15,599 nt of DNA, from the NCBI GenBank assembly GCA_043228905.1, contig JBHGNT010000791.1, positions 1 through 15,599 of the forward strand, written 5' to 3'. This DNA comes from Azolla caroliniana (Eukaryota; Plantae; Polypodiophyta). Position numbers and translations under genes: made by a program. The notes below the pieces were generated by a model that saw only the letters and a program-made list of their open reading frames with translations, searched no databases and was not told the DNA's origin. Position 1 is the stretch's first letter; every line of letters begins with the position of its first letter. Below are positions 1 to 15,599 of the stretch, piece after piece.

Positions 1-2717
1 CCCCGGTCCGCAATCACTTGTCCTACGCAGCCGTACCTACAAAACACTTCTTCCAAAAGAAATTGGCACACCGCGGCACACGTTTTCCTCCGAAGTGCTC
101 GACCTTCAACTTGGTTTGTGAGATCTTCTCGAGCTAACACCAAGTATTTCTTTTGTCCAATCCCGGTCGGCATAGCTACAATGTCGGCCATCCACTTGAA
201 GTTGATTGTCGGTGAGAATGTCGGATGCAGCTCATCTCGGTGTCAGACCCCGGAGTAGACTTGACATTTCTCGCAGCTTTCTGTGAACTCCGCGACATCT
301 TTATACATGTTCTTCCACCAATATCTTTGCTTGATTTTCACAAAAGTTGCCCATGTTCCTCGATGTCCAGCCCAATCGGATTCGTGGAACTCGGACATTA
401 TCCGGTTTCGTTGCTCTTTCGTCCCGACTACTCGAAGTGGTATCCCATCCGGTCTTTTCGGCGTCCTCCATATTAAACCGTTTTCCAAGAAGAACTTTTG
501 GACTTGCCTCTTCTTCCTTCGGATCTCGGCTCTCCTTTCTTTATCATTGGTTGAATCCTCGACCTCTTGTAGCATCTTCCCGATCATCAAGGTTTCCCCC
601 TCGTATTCTTCTTCCCGGAATTCTCGGATCACGTTCACTCGGCATATGTGTTCTGACGTGAAGTAGTCTTCGGAAACTTCTTCATTATCTGATTCGGTTA
701 TGTCGTCTTCAAACCGCGCCCTCGATAACATGTCCGCTACCGCGTTGTCCTTCCCCGAGATGTGTCGAACCTCCGGATTAAGTGACTTGACATATGCAAT
801 CCACCTTAGCATAGCCACATCCGGTATCGTACAACACCGCATCATCCCGAGTATCGGAAGACAATCCGTCTCGATCACCACTTCAGCTCCGATCAAATAA
901 TCTCGATCCGATTTTATCGCCGACACGACTCCCCACAATTCTCTTTTGACTTGTGCATATCCGTGTTGCCTTTCGTTGAGGACCTTTGCTCCAAATCGGA
1001 TCGGATACCGCGAACCATCCGAGTCGGCTTGATTGATGACCCACCCGATACCGGTTGGACTTGTATCAACCGTTACTATGATTGGCCGCTCGTAGCTTGG
1101 CTTCTTAAGTGATTCCGCCCTCCATAGTGTCTTCTTGAGCTTCCTCATGGCTTTAGTGTGTTCCGGTTTCCACTCGAATTTCTTACCTTTCCGCAACAAG
1201 TGATAGAGCGGGTCCGCTATATGTGCATAGTGCGGAATCCATATGTGATAGAATGCACACGAACCCAGAAACCTTCGGACTTCCGATGTTGACTCACATA
1301 CTTCCTTCATAGCTTGAATCGCATCGATCTTTGTTGGTGACGGTCTTCGGCCGTAGGGTCCACATAGATGTCCGACCACCAATATTTCTTCTTGCCCGAA
1401 TGCCGATTTCTCCCCGGAAAGTGTTAGGTGCACATCTTCTAGCTTTCGCAACACTTTCTCGCAATCATGAATATGGTCGACCACGAACTTTCGGCATCCC
1501 CGATCATCCATAGTCTCATCTTTTTCTTCCACCGCGCATCCTTTCATCGGAATGTCATCTAGAAACGGCATCGTTATCTCCGGGATGCAATCTCGAAGCA
1601 CCTTGTTCATCGCGTTCATCATATGTGCAACCGAGTTTGTCGCTCCTTGTGGTAGTGTGCACATTCGAACTAGTCCTATCGGTGTCCGCATGGTAGTGAT
1701 GTCTCAGCTCTCCACGGCTAGTTGGAATTGGTCATACCCCGAGTATAGGTCCCCGATGGAGTATATCGCACGTCCGGCAAAAGCTTCCGCGAATTCGTCC
1801 ACTATCGGACCGACTCCCGAGTTCCGGATCGTGACCTTGTTCACCGGTTGCAAGTCTTGGATGAATCGGAGTGACCCATTCTTCTTCGGAACCGTAAACC
1901 ATCGATTTGAGTACGGAGCACTTGATGGCTCTAGAATCCCCATCGCCACCTTCTCCTTGAGCAAGTCGATGACTTTCGGAATATGCGCCCGTGGCACCGG
2001 AATCGGCTTCAGGTTCCACGGTACATGATCAATCGTGAAAATCACCATCGGCTCCACTATCTTTGGATCAATGCATCCGATCTCCCTCGATGTGAACGCG
2101 AATGCTTTGCCATGTTGCTCCAACATCTCTCGAAACCGTTTTTCTTCTTCTTGTAAGAGGAACCCACCTCCACCGATCCGAAGTTTCTTCCGGGTCTCAT
2201 CTGTGAAGGCATGTCCGATATCCACGGACTTCCGAAGTGTCGGATCTCCCGAGACTTCTTTCTTCTTTTGTTCGCTATCGGCGGGTAGTGGTCCCGCGGC
2301 TGGTTTCACCTTCTTCTCCACGGTCTTGTATTTCGTACTTACCATTGCTTCTTCTTTGCGGAGCGCATCCGGCCCCATTTTCGCAACGATCTCGTACATC
2401 TCGACCGATTCCACCGGGACTACCCGGTTCCCTTGGCTTTTATCTTCCGCAAGCTCTTCAAGCCGTTGTAGTGTATCCCCATAGAACACTTCCTCGATCA
2501 CTCCCACGATTTCTTCGTCTTCTTTTATTATTGATGCCGACCGTAACTTATCCTCCACTTGTCGGTATTGTTTCTTCATTCCTCCGGTTACGGCCGTGTA
2601 CGTAGATGCCCCATCCGGGCCGATTCGTACTTGTTTTGCTCCGAGAGTTTTCTTCCTGTGTGGGGTATCAGGGCTTCTCGGACTATCACTTCCCCACTCC
2701 GCAACAGTCCGCTTTAA
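1..2717 (-). pseudogene. pol: pol (RT - RNase H - integrase) in the -1 frame relative to gag-pro, interrupted by two in-frame TGA codons
   Basis: Track ORFs 1704-2579 and 243-1691 share one frame, which is open from 2795 and continues past 243 to base 1. RT: DLYSGYDQ, LPQGATNS, FLDD (1554-1565). RNase H: VDTS..RELWG..ETDC..ADMLSR. Integrase: HHCC (FHESDWAGH..CEKC) and core KWMADIV...VIADRG. Stops at 1706-1704 (VES*DIT) and 245-243 (SGV*HRD). Confidence 0.92.
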
Positions 2718-2723
2718 AAATCC
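2660..2723 (-). promoter_or_regulatory. Predicted -1 programmed ribosomal frameshift signal: slippery heptamer GGAUUUU plus downstream pseudoknot
   Basis: Minus strand reads G GAT TTT (2723-2717), then spacer TAAAG. Stem 1 is CGGACTGTTGC (2711-2701) with GTGATAGTCCG (2689-2679). Loop GTGGGG (2697-2692) is complementary to CCCCAC (2665-2660). Confidence 0.78.
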
Positions 2724-4753
2724 ATTCTCACTTGGGACAAGAGTTCCCTCTTGTTCCTTTCGTGATTTGCCGGCACCGTTAGGAATTGGACGGATTTACC
2801 TCCGTTTTGGCTCCGAATTCGCGCAAAAGCCGCACCACTATCGAGCACCTTCGTCCCCATCCGTGAAGCCGTGATAAAGGGTTGGCCGAGGATGACAGAA
2901 TGTGAAACCTCATCCTGCACAAAGAAATTTTGGTCAATTTCGACATCCCCGATCTTTACCGTCACATCCGGACAAGCCGCAAATAGGTCTTCTGTCGTTT
3001 TCGTGGCTGCCCGAATCTTCCATCCATGGTTGGTATTTATAGGCCACTTCCCCTTTCGGTAGAACTCCTTGGACATCAAGTTGATCTCCGATCCGTGATC
3101 AATCAATGCTAGCACGGGTTCTTTGATGTTGCCGATTCGGACCGGAGTCTCCGTAGTCGCACGTGCCCAGTGTGGCCTTGTATAGTGGGAGTTCGGAATT
3201 TCGCCTTCCACTTCGGTGTCGTTCATTGAAACGGTATTTGCATTCACCCTTGGAGCATTTTCCTCCGTACTTTGTCTCTTCCTTTTCACGAGATCCACGA
3301 GAAGATCGTGAAACTCCTTCTTCGCTATTCCGAGTAGTTCCCGCAGCGAAAAATCTACCCGGCTATCCAAGATTCTTTCCTCGAACACTCTTTTCAAGTC
3401 GGTTTGTTGTTCTATGTCCGAGGCGAGCTTGAATGCCGGAGTCGCCTTTTCTTTTCCCTTACCTCCGGAGTTCCAGCTTTCCGTTATCTTCGATGGTCTG
3501 GCCGCATCCTCCGTGCGCCGTTGTTTCTCGTCCACATACACCTCATGTAATTGACACAGGGCGTATATGCTATTCTTATCGACAGGGCATTCCCATCCCG
3601 TAGCTTCCCGGACGCCTTCCGCGGTGTTTCGGATATCGTTGGAGTCGGTTTTCTCGGTGTTTCCTAGCACCTCCGGCCAGAAAGACGCCTTCGCTCCCGA
3701 TGACTCCCTGACACATATTCCCGCGGTTGTCGCATAGTTGCTTCTTGCCGCTAACTCCTCCTCGAGCACCTTCTTCATGCCGCCTTTCCGGAAGTTCGGT
3801 CGGAGTGGCTTCCGAGAGTCCATCGAATGAATCCGGTTTCCCTCGTAGTAGATGAGATCCCGTCGTAGCGCCTCCTTATGGTCGTCGCAATCCCTCCGAT
3901 CGTGTTCGGCGCTATCGCACCATATGCACCGTCGATCCGTATATTTGGAGCTTGTGGGGCGGTCATCCGACTTCTTCACCATCGCGATCTTTAGATTCTC
4001 CATCTCCTTCAGCAGCTGCTCCACCGTAGACGCGTCGACTCCCTTCTCGGCCGTAATCTCCCGAGCCCTCGGTTGATGGTCTTCCAGTCCCGTTCTCGGT
4101 TTCGGAATCGGTTCCGAAACCCTCTTTTCTTCGTTGGCAAGCCATTGCCCCCTCTTCGTGTACCGCGCGACGATATCCCGCACGCTTTCCCATGTTTCAG
4201 TGAGGCCGCTTTCGGTGGTCGTGTCCTCAAGAAGCACTCCGAGATCTTTCCGGTCCCGGACGTCCACAGCTCGCAAAAACATGATGACTTTGTCCGGTGC
4301 AAGAATAGTTTGATCTCTCGCGGACAACCTCCCGAACCGACTTTCGAATGTCGAAAACACTTCGAGGACCTTCAGCCCCTTACCTGACGTTTCCACCCAA
4401 TCCTCGAATCCCCTCCGCGTTGCCTTGGAGGAGTCCTCGATGGCAAACGTGGTCTTTAACGCCTCTTCGAATGCTTCCCACGTCGGATTTTGTTGTTGCA
4501 ACCCGTGGATACTCCCTTGAAGCCCGTCGGTCGCCACCCGGTTAAAGGATGTCACTTGCAGTCCTTCCGAAGCCTGGCACCGGAGCATCTCCGCCTTGTA
4601 GTCCTGCAAATATCGCGACACATCCTTACCATTAAATTGCCCGTTGCGTTGCACGAGCCGCTCTACTGATGCCGAAATCTCCGACATCGTGCGTTGTTCT
4701 TGAAGCATCCGTTCGAACATCGCCATCATATTGTTAGCTTGTTGAGCCTCCAT
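2714..4753 (-). CDS. gag: Gag + aspartic protease polyprotein (ORF1, 679 aa from ATG 4753; frame open to GTG 4840)
   Basis: Intact ORF. CX2CX4HX4C knuckle CIWCDSAEHDRRDC at 3887-3928. Retropepsin-like ALIDHGSEINLM (DHG at 3092-3100) and ILGQPF. First ATG is in good context (gagATGG). Stop TAA at 2716-2714. Confidence 0.9.
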   Translation of the reverse strand: MEAQQANNMMAMFERMLQEQRTMSEISASVERLVQRNGQFNGKDVSRYLQDYKAEMLRCQASEGLQVTSFNRVATDGLQGSIHGLQQQNPTWEAFEEALKTTFAIEDSSKATRRGFEDWVETSGKGLKVLEVFSTFESRFGRLSARDQTILAPDKVIMFLRAVDVRDRKDLGVLLEDTTTESGLTETWESVRDIVARYTKRGQWLANEEKRVSEPIPKPRTGLEDHQPRAREITAEKGVDASTVEQLLKEMENLKIAMVKKSDDRPTSSKYTDRRCIWCDSAEHDRRDCDDHKEALRRDLIYYEGNRIHSMDSRKPLRPNFRKGGMKKVLEEELAARSNYATTAGICVRESSGAKASFWPEVLGNTEKTDSNDIRNTAEGVREATGWECPVDKNSIYALCQLHEVYVDEKQRRTEDAARPSKITESWNSGGKGKEKATPAFKLASDIEQQTDLKRVFEERILDSRVDFSLRELLGIAKKEFHDLLVDLVKRKRQSTEENAPRVNANTVSMNDTEVEGEIPNSHYTRPHWARATTETPVRIGNIKEPVLALIDHGSEINLMSKEFYRKGKWPINTNHGWKIRAATKTTEDLFAACPDVTVKIGDVEIDQNFFVQDEVSHSVILGQPFITASRMGTKVLDSGAAFARIRSQNGGKSVQFLTVPANHERNKRELLSQVRMDF

Positions 4754-5048
4754 CTCCTTGCCACCCGTCTTCACGTCGGGTTCACCAACTGTGTCGTGCC
4801 TTTCGGCTCCGAATCGTTGCGTGAGTCGGGTGGGAACCACAGAGGTCTTGGACTAGGAGAAAGAAGTTCGTGAGATAGAGATTAATTATGAGTAAATAGC
4901 AAAGAGAAAGATAAGAAACTCGTGAATCACACGAGTATACTATATTAATTGGTACTTAGGGTGTTAAGAGAGAAGTAGATGTATAAATCGTGAATCCCAC
5001 AAATAATTTTTGTATTGATTAATACTTAATCCAAATAATCAACAACCC

Positions 5049-5079
5049 TTTATATATTTCTCTCCTCCTTATATAAGGA
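5049..5079 (-). promoter_or_regulatory. Candidate LTR TATA boxes
   Basis: Minus strand TATATAAG lies within the palindrome TCCTTATATAAGGA (5066-5079), and a second TATATAAAGGG starts at ~5056. The position inside the LTR is plausible for the U3 promoter. Confidence 0.5.
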
Positions 5080-5438
5080 AGGAAGAGCTAAGCATGGCTT
5101 CATGCTTTTTTTACAAAAAGTGTTCATGTCCACTAAATGTGCATGTGATGCTTTTTTATTTCCTAAGTATAGGGCTCATGCACGCTAGATGTGCATGAGT
5201 TATTTTTAGTGTCTCGTATTCTTTTTCATATATTAAAAAAAATACACGATTTACCTTTTAATAAAGGTATGCATAAATAAAGGTCTTATAGGTATTAAAT
5301 CTATATTCAAAACACTTAAGATAAGTTAATGTAATGGTAAGGTTGGGGTTTGTCAACGTGGAGGTGTAGAGTTTGAATCACGCCTTGCGCAGTAGTGAGT
5401 ATTTCTTTTTTTTTACATTTATGTCTCTTTATCCGGCT

Positions 5439-5535
5439 CTTCCTGGCCGGTATGCCGTTTTCTTCCTTGCCGGTATGCCGTTTTCCTCCTTGCCGGTATG
5501 CCGTTTTCCTCCTTGCCGGTATGCCGTTTTCTTCC
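5439..5535. repeat. 23-bp tandem repeat, 4 full copies plus a partial, in LTR U3
   Basis: Unit c(t/c)tcct(t/g)gccggtatgccgtttt starts at 5439, 5462, 5485 and 5508, with partial cttcc at 5531. Confidence 0.95.
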
Positions 5536-5999
5536 GGTTCTCACCGAGCACTCCATTCTCTATCCGGAGGGACAAAAATATAATTTCCACATAGTGTGCA
5601 ACCTACACTACGACAGCGTGTCGTATTGATTCTACTACAGTTGGACACACTACACAATTAGGAGAGCTGAGGTTCCCACACTGCCATAATTCATTTAAAG
5701 TATTTATACACTTGAATTCATTTTTGCTTTAATAGTTAGAATATCTATAAACCAATGTATCTTTTTCATTTAATTTGCAAAACTTTCACCACGATTTCGA
5801 AGGAAATGAGATAAGGACAAGCTCATCAATTGTATATCGTCAACAAGCAATTGAAACATGCTACTATCAAAAGTAAGCCTATTAGTATCCCATGAACATG
5901 CCCCAATCAATATACTATCTTTTGAACCCAAGTTTTCTTCTCTTAAGCCCTAATGCATCATTACGTGATGTTCATGTAAATAATCGATAACACAAGTGG

Positions 6000-6438
6000 A
6001 TGGGTCATGATGATAAGATAACTATATTGAGGAATAGAATAAGAAAAGAAGAGGTAAATAAGATAAAATGTTAAGTGTAATAACAAAAAGAACAAGAGTA
6101 CAAGAGTACGCCCAAGACTGGCGATGAACCATAATGCATCATCAATACTAGGGAGTTGCGTATGTACCATAGTTGGACACATGCATGATTGTCCACTCAC
6201 GAATGCATGATCGCCATTTGGCATTCATGCAAGCCTTCCATTTGGAGGTAATACATTAACATGTGCAAGGTAGTGACATTTCATAATATTATTGTTATGT
6301 TCTAAACTATTTATGAAATCAATGTCATGTATAATATGATGCATTTAGTTGGTATCTTAGTTTACGGCTTTTTTTCAATGAATTCATAAGTTCAAATCTC
6401 CACGATAATGAAAATATTTTGTATATATGCTCATGAAA
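6000..6438 (-). repeat. Possible decayed 3' LTR of the chromovirus remnant
   Basis: Follows the PPT-like tract and starts TTTCATGA, resembling a TGTCATGA LTR start. The distal boundary is not determinable (tgtcatg/ggtcatga at ~6323 and ~6003). Confidence 0.25.
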
Positions 6439-6442
6439 CTAA

Positions 6443-7480
6443 TCCCTTCCTTTGACCATGAGTTCCATGAATCGCAATACACAAACTAGGACTTGTTCTA
6501 TTGGGATATCAAAGTTCTTTGGCATTAGCAAGATTTCTTATAGGCTCCCAAGTTCAATCATTAGGTGAGTAACTCAACCAATTAACCAAATGATATAACT
6601 TGTCATTCATAAACTTGAAGTCCAATCTCCAAAATGGTTTCCACCTTACATAGAGCGTCCACAAGATCCCAAATAGGGTGGAGGAACAACACAATCTACA
6701 ATAGAGATTAAATCGTAAAACTCTAAAAACGAGACACATGGAACACTAGATGAATATGTATATGAGGAGAAAGTTTGACTATGATCAATATGTATATGAA
6801 AATGCAGATTCATTGATCTGATCAAAGATTACATATGAACCACCAAGACATGATCTGCAATGTTTGACTATCAGTATCGAGGTCATAGCTCGAAGAGGTT
6901 TTGCATACAATTTGGAGTAGCTCAAGCAATTGTTCTCAAAATTTAGAGACGAATTTTGAACCTCAATCATTGTTGATGTCATTTGGAAGACCATGATGCC
7001 TAAACATTTTGCGCACAAACAAAATCTATTGTTTCTTAGATTTGGATAGTCTTCATGCATAGAAGAAAATGTGTCTTCTTAGTATATTGGTCTATCATAA
7101 TGAGAATGACACCTAAAGAGATCAACAATGAAATTCAAAAAGATTCCACTAACTGTAAGGGTTGCATGAATATGTGCAATATGTGCGGTTGCAATTTGTA
7201 GGGTTTGTTGGGTCAAGAAATGTAAATGCATGTTAACACATGTACACGCTTGTGTTACTTGAGCAGGTCCATCAAGGACCCGAACCAAGGAAGATGGCTT
7301 CGTCGAGGAATGATTGTATGCAATGATATTTTGATATCCTCTCTCCCTTGTTTTCCATGAATACACTTGTAGGTTCTCTCTTGTGCTCAAGACAAATTCC
7401 TTGTAATTTTCTCTTTAATGTATAATTTGGCTCGGCTCGTCGAATATGTGCACCAGATCATTTGTGAACGAGTTTGAATA
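6443..7480 (-). mobile_element. Degenerate chromovirus (Ty3/Gypsy, Tcn1-like) remnant: integrase core, GPY/F module, chromodomain, PPT
   Basis: Manual minus-strand translation, with stops and frameshifts: HVLTC..KPYKLQP; NFIVDL; FVRKMFRHHGLPNDINND*GSKFVSKF*EQLLELLQIVCKTSSSYDLDTDSQT (integrase core); QINESAF..HIHLVFHVS (GPY/F); KVETIL/LDFKFMNDKLYHLVNWLSYSPND*TWEPIRNLANAKEL (chromodomain, ~6512-6647). Purine tract AAAGGAAGGGA at 6453-6443. Confidence 0.85.
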
Positions 7481-8974
7481 GTTTTATGAACTTCTATGCT
7501 ATATGTGGCACAAGAGTTGGCGTTGGAAAGGAAAACTCGGAAACATAATTAGAAAAGATGAAGAAATGTAACAAAAATAGTTCAATTAATATAAATTTTG
7601 TGATGAATTCATAATTACAAAAAATGACGATGTAGATGATTAAACTCAACAAACTAAAAATGGCAAAACAACAATTTGAAATAGCCAATCACATTCATGA
7701 TGTCGACAACATAAAGCTTTGTAAATATAACATCACCCAATATCAAATCATACACACATCACTTTTGAGGAAGCTACTCCAAAAATGTGAAGCTTGCTGG
7801 CATCACCACAAGAACAAATAATAATAATCGAGACAACGGAAGATGATGACAATAACAAGAACAATGTTAGTAATAATATGAGGAATGATTGTGACAACAA
7901 ACTAGGAGCTCCAATACCTCCATTAACTAGTGATGTTATCATACTTGCCCAACCAATACAAAGATCGTCATAGTCATGAATGCATTATATCCTAACCCAT
8001 CCATGCTAATCGAGCTTCCTTGGATGAACTCTATCTTTCTTCAACATTGATGGTTCCATAAGCACGAATAACCTTTCATAGAACTCTCCTTTGACATCAA
8101 TGAAGACCCAACCCAGAGAAAATGTTTCAATCTCCATAAATGTGCAACCACCAAGCCCTTGCCTTACCAAAAATGACTTTCAGATTATGGTTAGTTCTAG
8201 ATTTCCTATCCTTTAGTCATCTTTGAATGTAGAAGACTATAAAAGTGCAATGTTGATGTCACACACATGTGGTTCTTTAGGAACCTCAATCCAAATTTCA
8301 AGGTCACCATCCTAATCAAAGAAGCGTTTTCACAATCAATCAACATTTCCCACCAACAATGGGCCCCTCCATCTCCCAAAGCCTCTTATCTTCCTTCAAC
8401 AACAACATCCACGCCACGCAAATGTAAATGTGAAGGATGCAGAAAGCCAACTTTTTGTCTCTTCTTGCTTTTTAATGTTAGTTATCTAATCTATAGCTTC
8501 TCCATCTCTCACTTCTCTCATTGATTAATGCTAAGTGCTTAACTCTAAGCCTCAGAAAAATCTTGTATTTGCACCAATATTGATTAATGGTATGTGTCTG
8601 CCCATTTTCTAATTAGATTTACTTCTCCTTTTATATGTTTGGGAGTGTCATTTTAGTAGTTGGTTAAGTTTATGTGCTTCTAAATCAAGTTAATTTTGTA
8701 AGAGAGTGAGGTGAGGTTCACGTATATCATTAATGTAAGAGTGATTGATAGCCACTCTTGCTTGTGTCATCAACAATAGCTGAACATTTGTTTGGTCCCA
8801 CCAACTATAGAGTAGATGGTAGTCATGAGGCATGATTTCACTTGAGGTTAAGAATTATGCTTAGTCTAACACACCTAGGCGCACCACAAAGATGCATTAC
8901 TTTCTTCATGATGCCTCATATGAAACATCAACCAATGATTTTCGTTACAATGCCAATATATCATAACTTCAAAA

Positions 8975-9200
8975 TTATATTTGGTATTCGCTTATACTGA
9001 ATGCCCCACTTTCAACCACATTTGAGCTTGCTTTCCTCAAATTTTCAATCATGATCTATTCCTACACATTTTCTCTATATCACAATCGACACATTTTCTT
9101 GACTAAAATTCTTGAACTCCATGAAGTGCTTGAAAATGTTTCAATTTTGTCTCATAGGTCATATTTTACCTCTAAGGATGTTCATAAAAGCTGTCTATTT
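8975..9200 (-). mobile_element. Possible highly decayed Ty1/copia integrase fragment
   Basis: Minus frame reads KI*PMRQN*NIFKHFMEFKNFSQEN....KCVGIDHD*KF....KWGIQYKRIP. This resembles the copia integrase pattern (vYpmk.KseVf..FkeFk..ven..kiKclrsDnggEf....GI.h..t.pyt). Confidence 0.4.
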
Positions 9201-9281
9201 ATCTATCCATCTCACCATATGCTTTGAAAGAGATGCATACATTCTTTTGAGTGACCATGATAGGAAACTTCTAGGATGTCC

Positions 9282-9470
9282 ATGGGGATATATTACATTA
9301 TAGATTAAGGCTTCTTACATTGTAGTGACTTCTCTCGTCTTCTTGTGTTGTTCTTTTATGTAATTGTACCTTTTTATGGGGATATATAGATTACAACTTC
9401 TTACATTGTAGTTACTAGTGACTTAGTTCCTCGTATTGTATTGTTTTTTTCTGCAATGATAATTTTTTAT
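9282..9470. repeat. Degenerate ~94-bp tandem duplication
   Basis: atggggatatat at 9282 and 9376. Each copy is followed by tagatta..cttcttacattgtagt..agtgactt..ctcgt..ttgt.ttgtt and a T-rich tail. Confidence 0.7.
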
Positions 9471-12400
9471 TTGATACTTGTTGCACCTACAAAATATACT
9501 AATAATATTGGTGTTCTTTTATGTTGACCGTACATTGCCACAATTTACAAGCACATACATTCTTTAAAATACATTTGATATTTAATACTCTTTTTTATGA
9601 GATTTTGTTAATTGTCAATATTTAAGTTTTATTTTATTAAGTTGGATGTACATACCTTGTTTTAAGATAAAAAAACCTTTTTAATGTACTACATGTTGCA
9701 TAGTAAGTGGTACGATTAAACTGATTCCTAGTTGGGCAAATATTAAATTGCTTTCTATTTTCGTCACACATTCGCTTGATTAAAAATTTGTTTTACTAAC
9801 TTTTAGGGTGAGCGAACATTCGCTTTTGGTATTCGCATCGGTAAGAAACACTTTTGTGTGCAATATATATACATTTCAATTTTCATAAAGTGTAGAAGTC
9901 AAATGCAATGCTATGCTTCCAACTTTATTGGTAGACTCAATTAATGAAGTGTTAGTTGTGGAACTTGACAATTTTGCCCAAACACGTTGTTTACTTAGTT
10001 ATTGAACTTTATGAAATATGTATATTAAATGATGATTTGTTACAAAGGATGTCCAACATCAAGTATGATTTGCATCCTAGTTTTCTCTTAAATAGTATAA
10101 ATTAATTCGGTTGGAAACTGATCTTTGTATATAAGAATATCGTTCAAGCCTAATTATATTCTATTTGTTTATTAAGACACAAATCAATCTTAATATTCTA
10201 ATTATGCATTTATTCTATTCCAATTCATTGGATATTCCAACCAAACTATATAGTTTTGCTAGCATGAGGAGCTATTCCATTTATACTTTTCTTTCTTGTT
10301 CAACCCACCTCCTCTAGTTTTCTCCCATCAATGAAACATTTCCATATACACAAGGGGAGGATCTCACCCTTACTTAGGGGTTGAGTTGGACCTACTCATG
10401 GATGTACTTTGAGAGGGAAAAATATTGAGAGACAGAGACAAGTCATTAGTCATGCTTTTGAGATGTTGTGGTGAGAGACATTGTAGTCTGAATATCCAAC
10501 AAAATAACCTTTACTCCAGCTAGTATGTATTTGGCACATGTTATTTACATACTTAGATTACTGTTCATATTTTATGAACCGATGTTTTATGAGTACTATA
10601 AAACAAGATGTTACGTGTAATAAGTTGCACGATGCGTGAGGCGTTGCCTTAACAACAAAAATAAATCGCTTCATCCGATATGCATGAACTTCACTTTTTC
10701 GCAAAAGGAAGTATTGCAAACAATCATTGTCTCCTGCAAAGGCGATGCTGGCAAACAACATTAATGACCATTCCGATAAGACACAATTGATGGTATATAA
10801 CATCCTTATCTTTCTTTTCCTTTCTAAAGGAAACAACTCAACAACCATTCCTTTCTCTTCATGTGTATACCTTGATAGTTTACTATTTAAATGTAGTCTT
10901 TTCCAATAATTTCTTCCCTCTTTCTTGTCATTTGTTGCTTTGCTCCAGCCCCTATAGAATATTGCTACCTGTATGACTCAATCTACTTTGAGGGGCTAAA
11001 AGAAAATTCCAACAATGATTATACACAAAAATGAATAGGTGGATGATATAGAATCTTGAGTAGTTTTAGAATATGACGAAAATGTCAAAAATTCATGAGA
11101 TTCATGCTTGTCTTGAACCATGATGAATCTCAGCTACTGCTAATTTGTGGATTGGTCACCTCCTAGTGTCGTTTTAGATAGAGCTTGAAATGTCGTATTA
11201 CAATGGTTAGCTTTCTTGAGAAATTGATTTATTGCCACTCATTTAAAAAGTGATTTTGCTATCTCTTGTATACTATTACTACACCAAGTGTAGACGATGA
11301 TATATAGGTCACCATAAAACTATCTGGCAGCACTTGTCGGCGAATGAGCCTTTGAAAATCACTATAGCAAGATATAAACTTGGGTGGAGTTGTAGCCATT
11401 TGTCCAGCTCTCACATTGTCAAAAATGGTGTAAACATTACTAGAGATGTTCACGATACATACATACTCAATATATATATAATATTGGTGTGCGCGACAAT
11501 ATGCAAATGAAAAGAATAAGTGAACGCAAAAATTGAACTCATCACAAAAACATTGATGTATTTGATAGGTAACCTCATCATACTAAGAATTATCTTATGA
11601 GGCAACATAAAAATTAAAAGCAGATTCAAAAAGATTGTACCAAAACTTACAAACGACATAATGATTGTTGTAGTAAATACATATATATCTCTAGACAGTG
11701 CAAGGAGACTCTATTTGTGCTTTTGACCTGGTTGCTAGTTAAAGTACACAAATTGTTATGAATGTTTAGAAACCTATCGTACTGTGATAGGGTTGTACAA
11801 AGTGTGCTATATTTTCTAGTTGAATGATGCCTACATGAAATGATATATTCTTTTACTAAAGCACTCTGAGTCTTAGCCTTGATGTTCAGCAAATATATAT
11901 CTAAATTTCGTCCTCAAAATAAAAATGTCATTTCTAAGGTAGAATTAATCAAAGGTTAACCAACAACCATATTGTATTTTAAAAACAAGAAAATGTTAAT
12001 TTGTTGCACACACGAATGCCTAAACTTCCCGAGAAGAACTTGTAGCAACAGATTACAATAGTATAAAGGTGGTGTGATATTGACAACTTGCTTATGGTTT
12101 ATAATCTGAAGTTCAGTGGGGTCTCTCCCCTATGTTATTCTCTACTAGTGCCAATCCCAAATCCACTAAAACATCCCAAAAGAAATGCATCATATTACGT
12201 GTCATCTTAATTTTCTAAAGGCATGTTTGCCCTTTAGGTTGGGACAAACAAGATGGCTACTAGTGGGGGTGGTTATTGGTAAATGCCGATAATTGTTTGC
12301 CAATGGGAACATAGAAATCTATCAACCAAATTGCTTGTAGAATTGAAGTCATAAATTTGACAAAACCAAAGTTCGATCTTCACCATCAACTTAACGTCCT

Positions 12401-14883
12401 ACACATCACAAATTGGTATGTTTAAATGTGGTATAAACTAGATGAGGTGGGGGTATTGCTAATTATGTCAGTCCTTTAGAATGCATGAGCGCACAAAAAG
12501 ACATGCATATCCCTAAGCACTTATCCATAGTGTCAAGAGGTTTTTTCTACCCTTACTTTTTGTGGTACATTGTTCGAACTTCACCTCAATGGTTCTCAAC
12601 AAAGCAAATTGTTGTGGCTCACTCAAAGTGCATAGACCATACCATTAAATTTGGGTTTTAATTATATGCGATGTTTAGAGCATACCATTATACTTTTCAT
12701 CTAAATTTATGAGGTAAAGGCTTCCCAATGCTACTTTGGTTTTATAGAATGACAACTTTCATACCTATGAAGGCTACACAACTAGTAGTCTTACATCATG
12801 GGACAAAGAAAATCAAGTGTTAGCCTGATTTGAGGTATGCTAGGTTTGTGCAAAAGAGCTCATGTTAGAATAATGCGTTTTGATATGGCTTGTAAGACTT
12901 TGACACATCACCTTCTGCATTCAAGATCACATTGTAAAGCCTATTTTGTACCAACTATATTATCCTATTTTTGTGCTTATGTTAAAATCATACACCTTAG
13001 TAGGTCCTGTAAGCTTTGACACATTGGCATGATCATCACATTCAACTTTGATGGATTTTAATATTCAATGCTAGGAGGTGTAGGCTTCATGCATGTCCAT
13101 AAACCTATTAAAGCCAACATGTTAGGCATGTATTTAAACCTTTCCTTAAAGAAGACCCTCATTGTAATCATTATAACAACTAAGGTGTGAATATATTTTC
13201 TAATTTGATATATTCTTATTGATTGAATTTTGTTTCTAGTTTGATAAGAAAGTCATATGAAGTTAGATCACACTAGTTTATTTTCTTAATAAAACAAAGT
13301 ACACAAAAAGGGATCAAATATTGGGTTGATTATTAAAATGGTCTAATAAACAATCATGGTTCAACGCATTACAACCAAATTGTCATTCAAGCACACGCAT
13401 CATTGAAGGATTTCACATTTGATTGACCCAATATAATAAAGTTTGTCTTATTATACTTTGAGTGAAATTATGAAATTGTTTATGGGCCTTGAGCTTTTTT
13501 TATTTATGGTGTTCACATCTTTGGGCTAAATCCTATGAGTATTGCGGACAAAGGAAATAAATGGTTGTTACTGGATTCATAATTCCTTTCCTTAGATGTT
13601 AGCGATCTCCTTCAATGTATTATGGTGCACTTTATAACAAGCTTGCTTCTATCACATCTGCTTTGCCTACGAGTCTCAATTCTCCACCAAACATTAACCC
13701 AAATGTACACTCACTAGACTTTACATAACAAATAATAAGATTTTGAATATCCTAGGAAGGAATTTAAGATCACGTCATGTCATCCTTTGGTGCCAATAGT
13801 GGCCACCACATTTTTTATGTTATTTTCACATCAATTGGCTAATTCATTGTTATATAATATAGATACAAGGTAAAAAAATTTAGCTCATGCATAAAATGAT
13901 CTTGTCACAAAACACATCATAGTGTATACTATTAAATTCAGCTACTATTGTCAGTTAGTGATCATAGGTTACATGTATTTCATGGTGTAGTTCATATGTA
14001 TGGGTTTGCGTTCATACCTAAACTAGTGTGTAAGAATATATACATGCTAGATCTAGAAAGAAGCAACATATGCACCTAGACTTATCTTGTCACAAAGCAC
14101 GTTGTAGCATATACTATTGGATGAAGCCACTCCCATTGGTTATCATAATTGTTATGTTGAGGTGCAATTACGTGAATGCAGTTGCGTTCACCCCTCAAGA
14201 AGTATATAAGAACATATATAAATTCTAGACCTAGCCTAACACTGAACATTAAGAAAATATGCACATATTGAGATGGAATCTCAAACCTATGAAGTGTATA
14301 CTAAATGATGAAGGTTCAAAACTTAAAATATTGATATCAAATTCTGTAATCATACGGTCACATTGCAACAATGCAAATTAAATGGCCTTACATTTTCAAG
14401 GGAGCATTTGATGAAGTTGGAGGGAGGGATCTAGAGGTTTATAGCCAAAAGGTTGTAAACAAAATGAGCAAGATTCCATACTTTTAACATTTATGCAAAT
14501 GATGAAATTGGAAAACTACTTTGTAACGAATACACACCTTTCTTACCTTATTGTGACAAATGGAATGTCCGGACTCTCAACCAACCATTAGAATTTGCAC
14601 GTCAACTTCCAAGCTTAAAATATTCATAAACAAATGGTCGAAGCAATTACGGTACGTCAATACCACAAAGGATAACAAATTTGAATAAGGGAGCGTACGA
14701 AACCGTCTTCATTTTCTATGACAATGCAATGGAATGGAATGTTCGTTCACTACACACATTGTATACCAAGTGATCGAGCATCCAAACTTAAGCAAATTTA
14801 CTATATACAAAATTTGATTTTGTACTTACAAATATTACATTGCAATGAAGCAATTCAAGTGGGGTAGTAAAATTAAGGTGGTT

Positions 14884-15599
14884 TCATCTTATCTTGAGGA
14901 TAATGTCTATCCAAACATCACTGAAGGCATTCCTGATAATCTCATGGAGGTCTTGTGGATTAAGTTTAAGATAGTGGTAAAGAAGGTCCTCCATATCTTC
15001 GGCTTCATCCATACCTTTGTGCATGATCATCTCATGCATTGATTCTCGAAAATCATGGTATGGGTTGAGCGAGTCTTTCTCGACACGAAGAATGCTCTTA
15101 GAAGTATGATGGTTGAGTGAACTAACACTAGGGATATTGTTACCCCTCATTTTCTCATGGATATTATGAGTAGTAGTAGCCAATGCTTTTACATTGTCAT
15201 TCCACACTCCATTATGAGTCGAGGTTGAATGATGTGACCCATGATTAGTGTCTCCATTATTAGATTGCCAAAGAGATGATCGATCAACATCTATTGACAA
15301 TGCCGATGATAACGAGGATAAGCATCGATGATTCGAAGATGATGACAATAATCCTATATTGTATCGATGATTCGACAATGATAATAATCCGTTACTTGAG
15401 GATGATAATGCACCATGATTAGGAGATGAGAATATTGCATCATGATTAGGAGGTGAGAATATTCCATGATGATTAGGGGCATTATTAGAGGATGTTAGTC
15501 CATGGTTAGGAGTATTATGATTAGTGGGTGATATTAATCCGCAGTTAGGATTATGCTTAGAGGAAGATAATCGATGATTAGGGGTATGATTAGAGGATG
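14884..15599 (-). CDS. OFP: OVATE family protein (OFP), 3' part; start codon is beyond the window end
   Basis: The C-terminal VEKDSLNPYHDFRESMHEMIMHKGMDEAEDMEDLLYHYLKLNPQDLHEIIRNAFSDVW matches the OVATE (DUF623) consensus (K.S.dP..DFR.SM.EMi....leeLL..yL.LN....H..I..AF.dvw), ~14899-15090. The frame is open from 15597 to TGA 14884, so the track start at 15378 is an internal TTG. Confidence 0.93.
   Translation of the reverse strand, partial: SSNHTPNHRLSSSKHNPNCGLISPTNHNTPNHGLTSSNNAPNHHGIFSPPNHDAIFSSPNHGALSSSSNGLLSLSNHRYNIGLLSSSSNHRCLSSLSSALSIDVDRSSLWQSNNGDTNHGSHHSTSTHNGVWNDNVKALATTTHNIHEKMRGNNIPSVSSLNHHTSKSILRVEKDSLNPYHDFRESMHEMIMHKGMDEAEDMEDLLYHYLKLNPQDLHEIIRNAFSDVWIDIILKIR
15397..15477 (-). 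repeat. 27-bp (9-aa) coding tandem repeat x3 in OFP
   Basis: cctaatcatcatggaatattctcacct / cctaatcatgatgcaatattctcatct / cctaatcatggtgcattatcatcctca = PNHHGIFSP, PNHDAIFSS, PNHGALSSS. Confidence 0.8.

Follow-up and report, generated by a model that had tools for sequence, protein, structure and literature searches.

A conserved candidate -1 frameshift signal between Gag-protease and Pol in Phygy-like Ty3/gypsy retrotransposons of land plants, with a probable -2 variant in one clade

The first 5.6 kb of a 15,599-nucleotide stretch of Azolla caroliniana DNA (contig JBHGNT010000791.1 of assembly GCA_043228905.1, positions 1 to 15,599; "the window" below means this whole stretch) carries on its minus strand a high-copy, Phygy-like LTR (long terminal repeat) retrotransposon of the Ty3/gypsy type, in which a first open reading frame (ORF1) for Gag and protease (PR) is followed by a pol frame for reverse transcriptase (RT), RNase H and integrase. 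Our analysis suggests that throughout the lineage of this element the two frames are joined by a -1 programmed ribosomal frameshift, at a slippery site followed by a predicted pseudoknot, yielding an RT-RNase H-integrase fusion. Judging from the sequences of the element and its relatives, we put the probability of this reading at roughly nine in ten. The sequence of the site and the frame offset are conserved, the stems covary, and both pol and the linker that precedes RT are under purifying selection.

Results

The junction in the window copy

ORF1 of the window copy ends ATG GAT TTT TAA, the codons for Met-Asp-Phe and a stop, and the heptamer, the stop, the spacer, the arms of stems 1 and 2 and a small CCUG/CAGG hairpin are all found where the original prediction had placed them (Table 1). 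Its statement that pol lies in exactly the -1 frame relative to ORF1 was likewise reproduced; this frame starts to be open at 2795 in the window copy and 121 nt ahead of the stop in the sister contig L001. Folding of the 42 nt that follow the heptamer gives -15.3 kcal/mol (z -4.97, with none of 200 shuffles equally stable), while a wider 101-nt fold is unremarkable (z -0.41). A search against Rfam gave no match. Of 13,344 codon positions within ORF1 bodies, 3 have G GAT TTY in frame. In the mechanism we propose, a ribosome would pause with GAU in the P site and UUU or UUC in the A site, the two tRNAs would re-pair on GGA and UUU, and reading would go on as ...Met-Asp-Phe-Leu-Lys-Arg-Thr.... 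Unshifted ribosomes would stop at once, freeing Gag-protease, and the minority slipping back by one base would make the rarer RT/RNase H/integrase fusion, leading to a high ratio of Gag-PR to Gag-PR-Pol.

Conservation of the frame offset

A metagenome scan yielded 80 loci, or 81 with the window, 79 of which could be scored, the other two running off their contigs. Twenty of the 79 have no pol match, and 12 of the 79 lack a recognisable junction, being degenerate or mis-anchored. Among the 59 loci with a pol match, pol lies in the -1 frame and is open through the ORF1 stop in 51, down to 56% protease identity. The other eight comprise one locus with an interrupted -1 frame, two with an interrupted +1 frame, one with an interrupted frame 0 and four in which the +1 frame is open; of these last four, L065 and L079 are degenerate with a mis-anchored stop, and L052 and L054 form the separate clade discussed below. 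The original prediction had named sister copies with everything in one frame as the observation that would speak against it, and no intact in-frame Gag-PR/pol fusion was present among the 59 loci with a pol match. When indels at a share of 10% were listed in three runs of about 9,000-11,000 contigs each, the sole indel lay at 4576, far from the junction; joints in the DNA runs are single low-depth contigs and were not used.

The overlap between ORF1 and pol ranges from 121 down to 10 nt. Because it is as short as 10 nt in some families, the shift is confined to the heptamer. A confinement of this kind had been proposed from the window alone, with the TAA at 2798-2796 as the frame boundary; the bound turns out to be real, but it comes from other families, with overlaps of 10-13 nt, and not from this TAA, which is specific to the copy (in X3 and X9, two of the runs, another letter stands at 2798 in nearly all of the depth).

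Between the shift site and RT lies a linker of 118-153 aa, free of stops in all of the 29 loci, out of 31, in which its end could be located, with a dN/dS of 0.18-0.49 in 5 pairs and a length that varies by whole codons only. The first Met of the pol frame falls anywhere from codon 1 to codon 109 across 31 loci. We note that the linker, both in the window (2333-2716, minus strand) and in its relatives, has no Pfam match and yet remains open under moderate purifying selection.

Conservation of the heptamer

The motif G-G[A/G]-U-U-U-Y is found in frame at the end of ORF1 in 65 of the 79 loci: in 61 it is G GAT TTY directly before the stop, in two G GAT TTY stands some codons further upstream or belongs to a broken copy, and in two the stop comes five codons after G GGT TTT. 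Two further loci of the 79, L052 and L054, have AG GTT TTT instead. Among the 79 loci examined, a G precedes GAT-TTY-stop in all 61 that end so. This first G of the heptamer occupies the third position of ten different codons across 25 families, for which codon usage gives a joint expectation of about 2e-5, a figure that is only indicative since the 25 families are related. At the level of proteins, out of 120 relatives, 76 end in x[DGN]F, 24 in [DG]F plus five residues and two in VF[DY], the remaining 18 being truncated or gene models, and a preceding residue without an NNG codon is found in 0 of the 100 motif-ending proteins as against 32% in the preceding 10 residues. GGAUUUU also has the precedent in plant viruses that the original prediction had claimed for it, with G_GAU_UUU in pea enation mosaic virus (PEMV) and G_GA-type sites in umbraviruses and dianthoviruses (PMC5009743, cited here, like the other papers given by PMC number, from excerpts).

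In L052, L053, L054, L055 and L056 the ORF1 stop lies 1 or 5 codons beyond the heptamer; a stop adjacent to the heptamer is not required, because L053 too is without one. In L055 (3052-3130) and L056 (1569-1645), as well as in 24 proteins, ORF1 continues for five codons past the heptamer and through the first arm of stem 1, and this subgroup includes proteins of Physcomitrium and Adiantum. Most families have a run of five T at the site; the family of L044, L046 and L047 has GGATTTC, with three, together with intact ORFs.

Beyond the metagenomes, scans of viral contigs found no relative, and a scan of prokaryote genomes found two loci, L092 and L093, which look like eukaryotic contaminants; L092 spans the junction. 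This L092 is a eukaryotic retrotransposon contig in a cyanobacterial genome bin, where it is likely contamination.

The predicted pseudoknot

For the structural comparisons, sets of 28 and 29 sequences were chosen by eye, with near-duplicates and broken copies removed. When copies were compared, as the original prediction had suggested, the -1 offset, the heptamer and both stems proved to be kept across divergent families, with compensatory changes. Stem 1 was tested on 29 aligned cassettes, L051, L055 and L056 being omitted from the alignment, A1, because their stems differ in sequence. In this alignment 84% of the cells are paired and two-sided changes occur at 6 of the 11 pairs; the covariation score exceeds all 500 shuffles and stands far above slid controls, and pairs with two-sided changes were at least as numerous in 49 of the 500 shuffles. 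The conserved core of the stem is 8 bp, with outer and inner pairs often open. Stem 2 pairs the loop of stem 1 with a downstream arm, and a family's own loop and arm pair at -13.2 kcal/mol on average, compared to -10.8 kcal/mol with swapped partners (0 of 20,000 permutations). It beats control windows from the same locus at p<=0.05 in 20 of the 28 families, and its arms change together, as GGGG/CCCC, GGGA/UCCC, GAGGG/CCCUC and GCGAG/CUCGC. The spacer is 5-6 nt in 26 of the 28 families and 3-4 nt where extra pairs lengthen the stem.

Families with other stems show the same layout. L051, L055 and L056 have a different stem 1 sequence and retain the heptamer, the 5-6-nt spacer, a stem and complementarity between its loop and the downstream sequence; L092 (1113-1200), from a distant group with long Gag, retains all of these features in the same cassette layout, with yet another stem sequence, the third, and a loop 3 that is longer. 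As far as can be judged from pairing predictions, then, three unrelated stem sequences keep the same geometry. The original prediction had also allowed for a kissing-loop variant built on the CCUG/CAGG hairpin. We rejected this as a feature of the lineage, since the hairpin is seen in only 3 of the 28 families (the window copy, L007 and L008).

A clade with a different frame

In L052 and L054 ORF1 ends CAG GTT TTT followed by GAC or TAC and then TAG (L052:2836-2904; L054:2498-2566). Here the -1 frame runs into a stop after 0 and 5 codons, and the -2/+1 frame alone keeps pol open, over 817+ and 819+ codons; it begins with a homologous Leu/Phe-Thr-Arg-Thr. The U5 run and the stems keep their position relative to pol, while the ORF1 frame is one base closer, so that the distance from the heptamer to the invariant GG of stem 1 is 5 nt as compared to 6 in the -1 families. 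A stable stem follows the site in both (z -3.6 and -5.1), and both retain the primer-binding site. In a midpoint-rooted tree of 26 pol rows the two form a clade (100/100) among the -1 families. They differ from each other by a dS of 1.19 with a pol dN/dS of 0.086, and because of these two values we conclude that pol has been under selection since they split.

Among 19 listed cluster members, 5 of the 15 in cluster 1 have QVFD ends and 2 of the 4 in cluster 2 have QVFY ends, the rest being fragments that end elsewhere. The L052 family is present in runs X3, X13 and X18, where one contig bridges 2666-3107 without difference and no junction indel is listed at a share of 5%. No VF[DY]-type family beyond P0025 and P0043 appeared among the matches listed, in which the ends of 15 new proteins were not re-tabulated.

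The element and the rest of the window

The order Gag-PR-RT-RNase H-integrase, with an LTR and a primer-binding site present, identifies a Ty3/gypsy LTR retrotransposon. Its domains are matched by Pfam, with protease, RVT_1 and rve below the curated cut-offs in the pieces compared. A protein search matched ORF1 to P0001, of 679 aa, with 98% identity over the scored part. Predicted proteins of Physcomitrium rank among the top matches; the protein relatives that bear a species name are from Physcomitrium patens, Riccia sorocarpa and Adiantum nelumboides, and by themselves would suggest a moss-like host. The window copy of the element is dead: its pol is broken by in-frame stops at 1704-1706 and 243-245, both missing from the high-coverage sister contig L001, where pol is open for 833+ codons. 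The primer-binding site may be one for tRNA-Trp; a tRNA gene containing its sequence was found in none of the 11 viral loci searched. The 3' edge of the LTR at 4792 is backed by diverse loose ends at that point. Within the putative LTR, a 23-nt unit is repeated in tandem in about five copies at 5415-5552. Elsewhere in the window, two degenerate direct repeats (D4 and D6) about 180 nt apart lie at 13892-14218, possibly an old tandem duplication, and the OVATE-family gene at 14884-15597 is a sign of a land-plant host.

Table 1. Features of the window, in window coordinates
Feature	Position	Strand	Remarks
Slippery heptamer G GAU UUU (GGATTTT)	2717..2723	-	codons Met-Asp-Phe of ORF1
ORF1 stop directly 3' of heptamer	2714..2716	-	TAA here; TAA, TAG and TGA all used among relatives
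Spacer	2712..2716	-	5 nt until stem 1 begins to pair, 6 nt until its invariant GG
Stem 1, 5' arm	2701..2711	-	11 bp with 3 GU
Stem 2, 5' arm GUGGGG	2692..2697	-	inside stem 1 loop
Stem 1, 3' arm	2679..2689	-	
Stem 2, 3' arm CCCCAC	2660..2665	-	beyond 13-nt loop 3
Small hairpin CCUG/CAGG	2655..2672 (arms 2672-2669/2658-2655)	-	only in the window's subclade
ORF1: Gag (DUF4100) and aspartyl protease	2714..4852	-	679 aa counted from ATG at 4753
pol in -1 frame: 127-aa linker, RT, RNase H, integrase	1..2717	-	cut by window edge
Primer-binding site starting TGG	4772..4787	-	<=2 mismatches in 39/45 loci long enough
Putative 5' LTR, TGTCGT...ACGACA	4792..5615	-	about 824 nt; 5' edge from terminal inverted repeat only
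ACGC flank of LTR	5616..5619	-	compatible with NCGN target-site duplication; second copy would fall beyond window
OVATE-family host gene	14884-15597	-	Ser/Asn/His-rich repetitive N-terminal part; cut by window edge

Discussion

The sequence features usually asked of a -1 frameshift signal are found here together: a conserved open downstream ORF in the -1 frame, an accepted variant of the heptamer, a spacer, mostly within the usual 5-9 nt, and a covarying 3' structure. Several points nevertheless weigh against the frameshift reading, in addition to those taken up with splicing and with the L052/L054 clade below. Most of the loci are collapsed contigs, drawn from a few metagenome assemblies whose numbers are similar, and the families are related to one another, so that the counts and the shuffles overstate independence. 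The predicted pseudoknot was scored as two separate helices; stem 1 misses p<=0.05 in 9 of the 28 families, and stem 2 does not rise above its controls at this threshold in 8 of the 28. The stems also encode residues of the pol frame, although these residues change along with the pairs.

Could the two ORFs be joined, or pol be made, in some other way? In Ogre elements an intron between protease and RT is removed from some of the transcripts, fusing the ORFs (PMC6317226). Splicing of this style could find a donor in the AG/GT-like motif that 13 of the 28 families have 122-128 nt upstream of the heptamer, and eleven longer proteins, which are automated gene models from Riccia and Physcomitrium, do bridge the junction with introns. 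However, the linker is unlike an intron and unlike the stop-containing, non-coding spacer of the Ogre type, being stop-free, changing its length by whole codons and having a dN/dS below 1; the donor-like motif seems, in our reading only, to fall on codons for a conserved Lys-Val in the protease; and the gene models are predictions joined at differing places, with a distance from ILG to xYK of 83-195 aa. The xDF-Leu-x-Arg junction looked for in fused proteins was absent in 10 of the 11 eukaryotic gene models, those with a locatable junction, which is weak evidence. Splicing would moreover leave both the first G of the heptamer and the covariation of the pseudoknot unexplained, and we consider it very improbable. 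As a separate observation, the Riccia and Physcomitrium gene models P0210-P0220, P0049, P0058, P0101 and P0022 skip the frameshift region at varying points and are probably annotation artefacts.

Slightly less probable still is that pol is made separately, by termination-reinitiation, internal initiation or readthrough of the stop. The structure does follow closely on the stop codon, and pseudoknots can drive readthrough at longer spacing; but readthrough would stay in frame 0, which is not the -1 frame of pol, the end of ORF1 uses all three stop codons, and a conserved Met in the pol frame was not found in 31 loci. We give as little credit to slippage of a polymerase on the T5 run, in transcription or in reverse transcription, adding a base in some of the transcripts. 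Such a run is indeed present in most families, but the T3 family has intact ORFs, which fits re-pairing of tRNA-Phe, and selection on the first G together with a downstream RNA structure suits a ribosomal event. Finally, since the window copy is dead, with two in-frame stops in pol, its frame offset might be a copy-specific indel without function. The recurrence of the same offset and signals in 51 loci across such divergent proteases, with no junction indel among sister copies, leaves this explanation with almost no weight and bears out the original view of a recoding signal as opposed to a random indel.

For L052 and L054 we think it probable, from the layout of their sites, that the pol frame is reached by a -2 slip. 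The A-site tRNA-Phe would slip back by two bases to the same pol register, and the loss of one base from the heptamer, leaving the spacer one shorter, would be the simplest route to their arrangement. We lean, a little less firmly, towards reading the clade as a natural switch from -1 to -2 on one pseudoknot, in which a single-base loss would have turned G GAU UUU into AG GUU UUU and an essential RT would thereafter have been made by way of -2. [quoted passage not shown] Against a -2 slip stand the poor P-site re-pairing that AG GUU UUU gives, the finding of Lin et al. that structure-driven -2 on U6A is abolished by a change of the first base, the reliance of the PRRSV site on a protein stimulator, and the fact that the clade consists of two families of one origin.

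A +1 shift would arrive in the same frame as a -2 slip, and in these two loci it might take place with UUU in the P site and the structure 2 nt past the A-site codon, a spacing like that of antizyme, whose +1 site has a 3-nt spacer (PMC5009743). In L054 the UUU U permits cognate +1 re-pairing. In L052, by contrast, the +1 codon is UUG, which is non-cognate for tRNA-Phe; the A-site codons under +1, GAC and UAC, are sense codons rather than stops; both loci carry the very PRRSV -2 site; and the U5 run has retained its ancestral distance from the stems. We regard a +1 shift as unlikely.

How do these signals compare to known systems? Like the -1 signals of PEMV-2 and the dianthoviruses, the cassette has a G_GAU_UUU used by plant ribosomes, a nearby 0-frame stop and a 3' structure. 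Those viral signals differ from it in that they use a bulged stem-loop and pairing over a kilobase range where a local stem 2, with a loop 3 of 9-16 nt, is found here, and in that the stop here usually adjoins the heptamer directly (PMC5009743). It is also like the signals of animal and fungal LTR elements and of PEG10 and PNMA3, in which a heptamer, a spacer and an H-type pseudoknot set the Gag:Pol ratio, although the shift here comes after the protease, unlike in those animal and fungal gag-pol cases (PMC5009743).

The L052 and L054 sites resemble that of arterivirus nsp2TF, with AG_GUU_UUU, a dead-end -1 frame and a productive -2 frame (PMC7618472, PMC4937337); both of the two have the arterivirus-type RG_GUU_UUU, and their product would lie in -2. 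The PRRSV signal, as described in the same two papers, has no RNA structure and depends on nsp1beta together with PCBP at a C-rich motif that lies 10-11 nt downstream, whereas in L052 and L054 a covarying predicted pseudoknot follows the site at 5 nt and an essential replicase would be the product of the -2 slip. The arterivirus CCCANCUCC motif is absent 10-11 nt downstream of the site in both. With a stable stem present and the CCCANCUCC motif absent, the site works like an arterivirus -2 site, to judge by its layout, but is not a member of that class. Relatives that use -1 or -2 at the same junction are also known from Trichomonas vaginalis viruses and from the tail-assembly genes of tailed phages; these are not retroelements, and no shared pseudoknot with a one-base change of spacer is named for them in the excerpted account (PMC5009743).

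With regard to classification, Neumann et al. 2019 (PMC6317226) characterise Phygy, a clade of non-chromovirus Ty3/gypsy elements, by an NCGN target site of 4 bp, a primer that is mostly tRNA-Trp, a length of 7.7-10 kb and an ORF organisation given as 'ND', term it species-specific, and report for some groups two ORFs, GAG-PROT being in one and the rest in the other. Extra ORFs and a chromodomain are not part of the REXdb Phygy type. Our element is like Phygy in having close protein relatives in Physcomitrium patens and coding that begins right after the primer-binding site; its 4-bp NCGN-type flank, its conserved TGG primer site and what seems a short length may be further points of likeness. 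It is unlike the REXdb Phygy entry in that its organisation is resolved as Gag-PR / -1 / RT-RNase H-integrase and in that relatives are also found in Riccia and Adiantum. On the features compared (the Physcomitrium relatives, the NCGN-type flank and the TGG site) it would fit Phygy and may be taken as a candidate member.

The proposed mechanism is of a known kind, while its occurrence in a land-plant LTR lineage, and after the protease, is something we have not found in print. No earlier description of a -1 signal in these elements was found in the literature searched, with subscription papers outside the search, and PMC9940879 contains no passage on 'frameshift'. For LTR retrotransposons of plants, the usual description is of a single ORF, a +1 shift or splicing. 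According to Atkins et al. 2016, the 2003 survey of Gao et al. found only +1 among plant elements with separate ORFs, and a -1 shift in plants is absent from their summary of it (PMC5009743). If our reading is true, a conserved -1 signal in moss, liverwort and fern relatives fills the gap left by that survey and by the 'ND' of the REXdb Phygy entry, and it would explain the variable introns that gene finders set at the junction. More generally, the lineage offers a natural library of variants of one signal, with several heptamers, three stem sequences and a stop that is either adjacent or five codons off. Within it, L052 and L054 provide a matched natural pair for asking if the length of the spacer is enough by itself to decide between -1 and -2, as in a model that has so far drawn on engineered constructs of U6A and on a viral site with a protein stimulator. 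If true, the switch from -1 to -2 would match what the mRNA-tension model predicts from artificial constructs.

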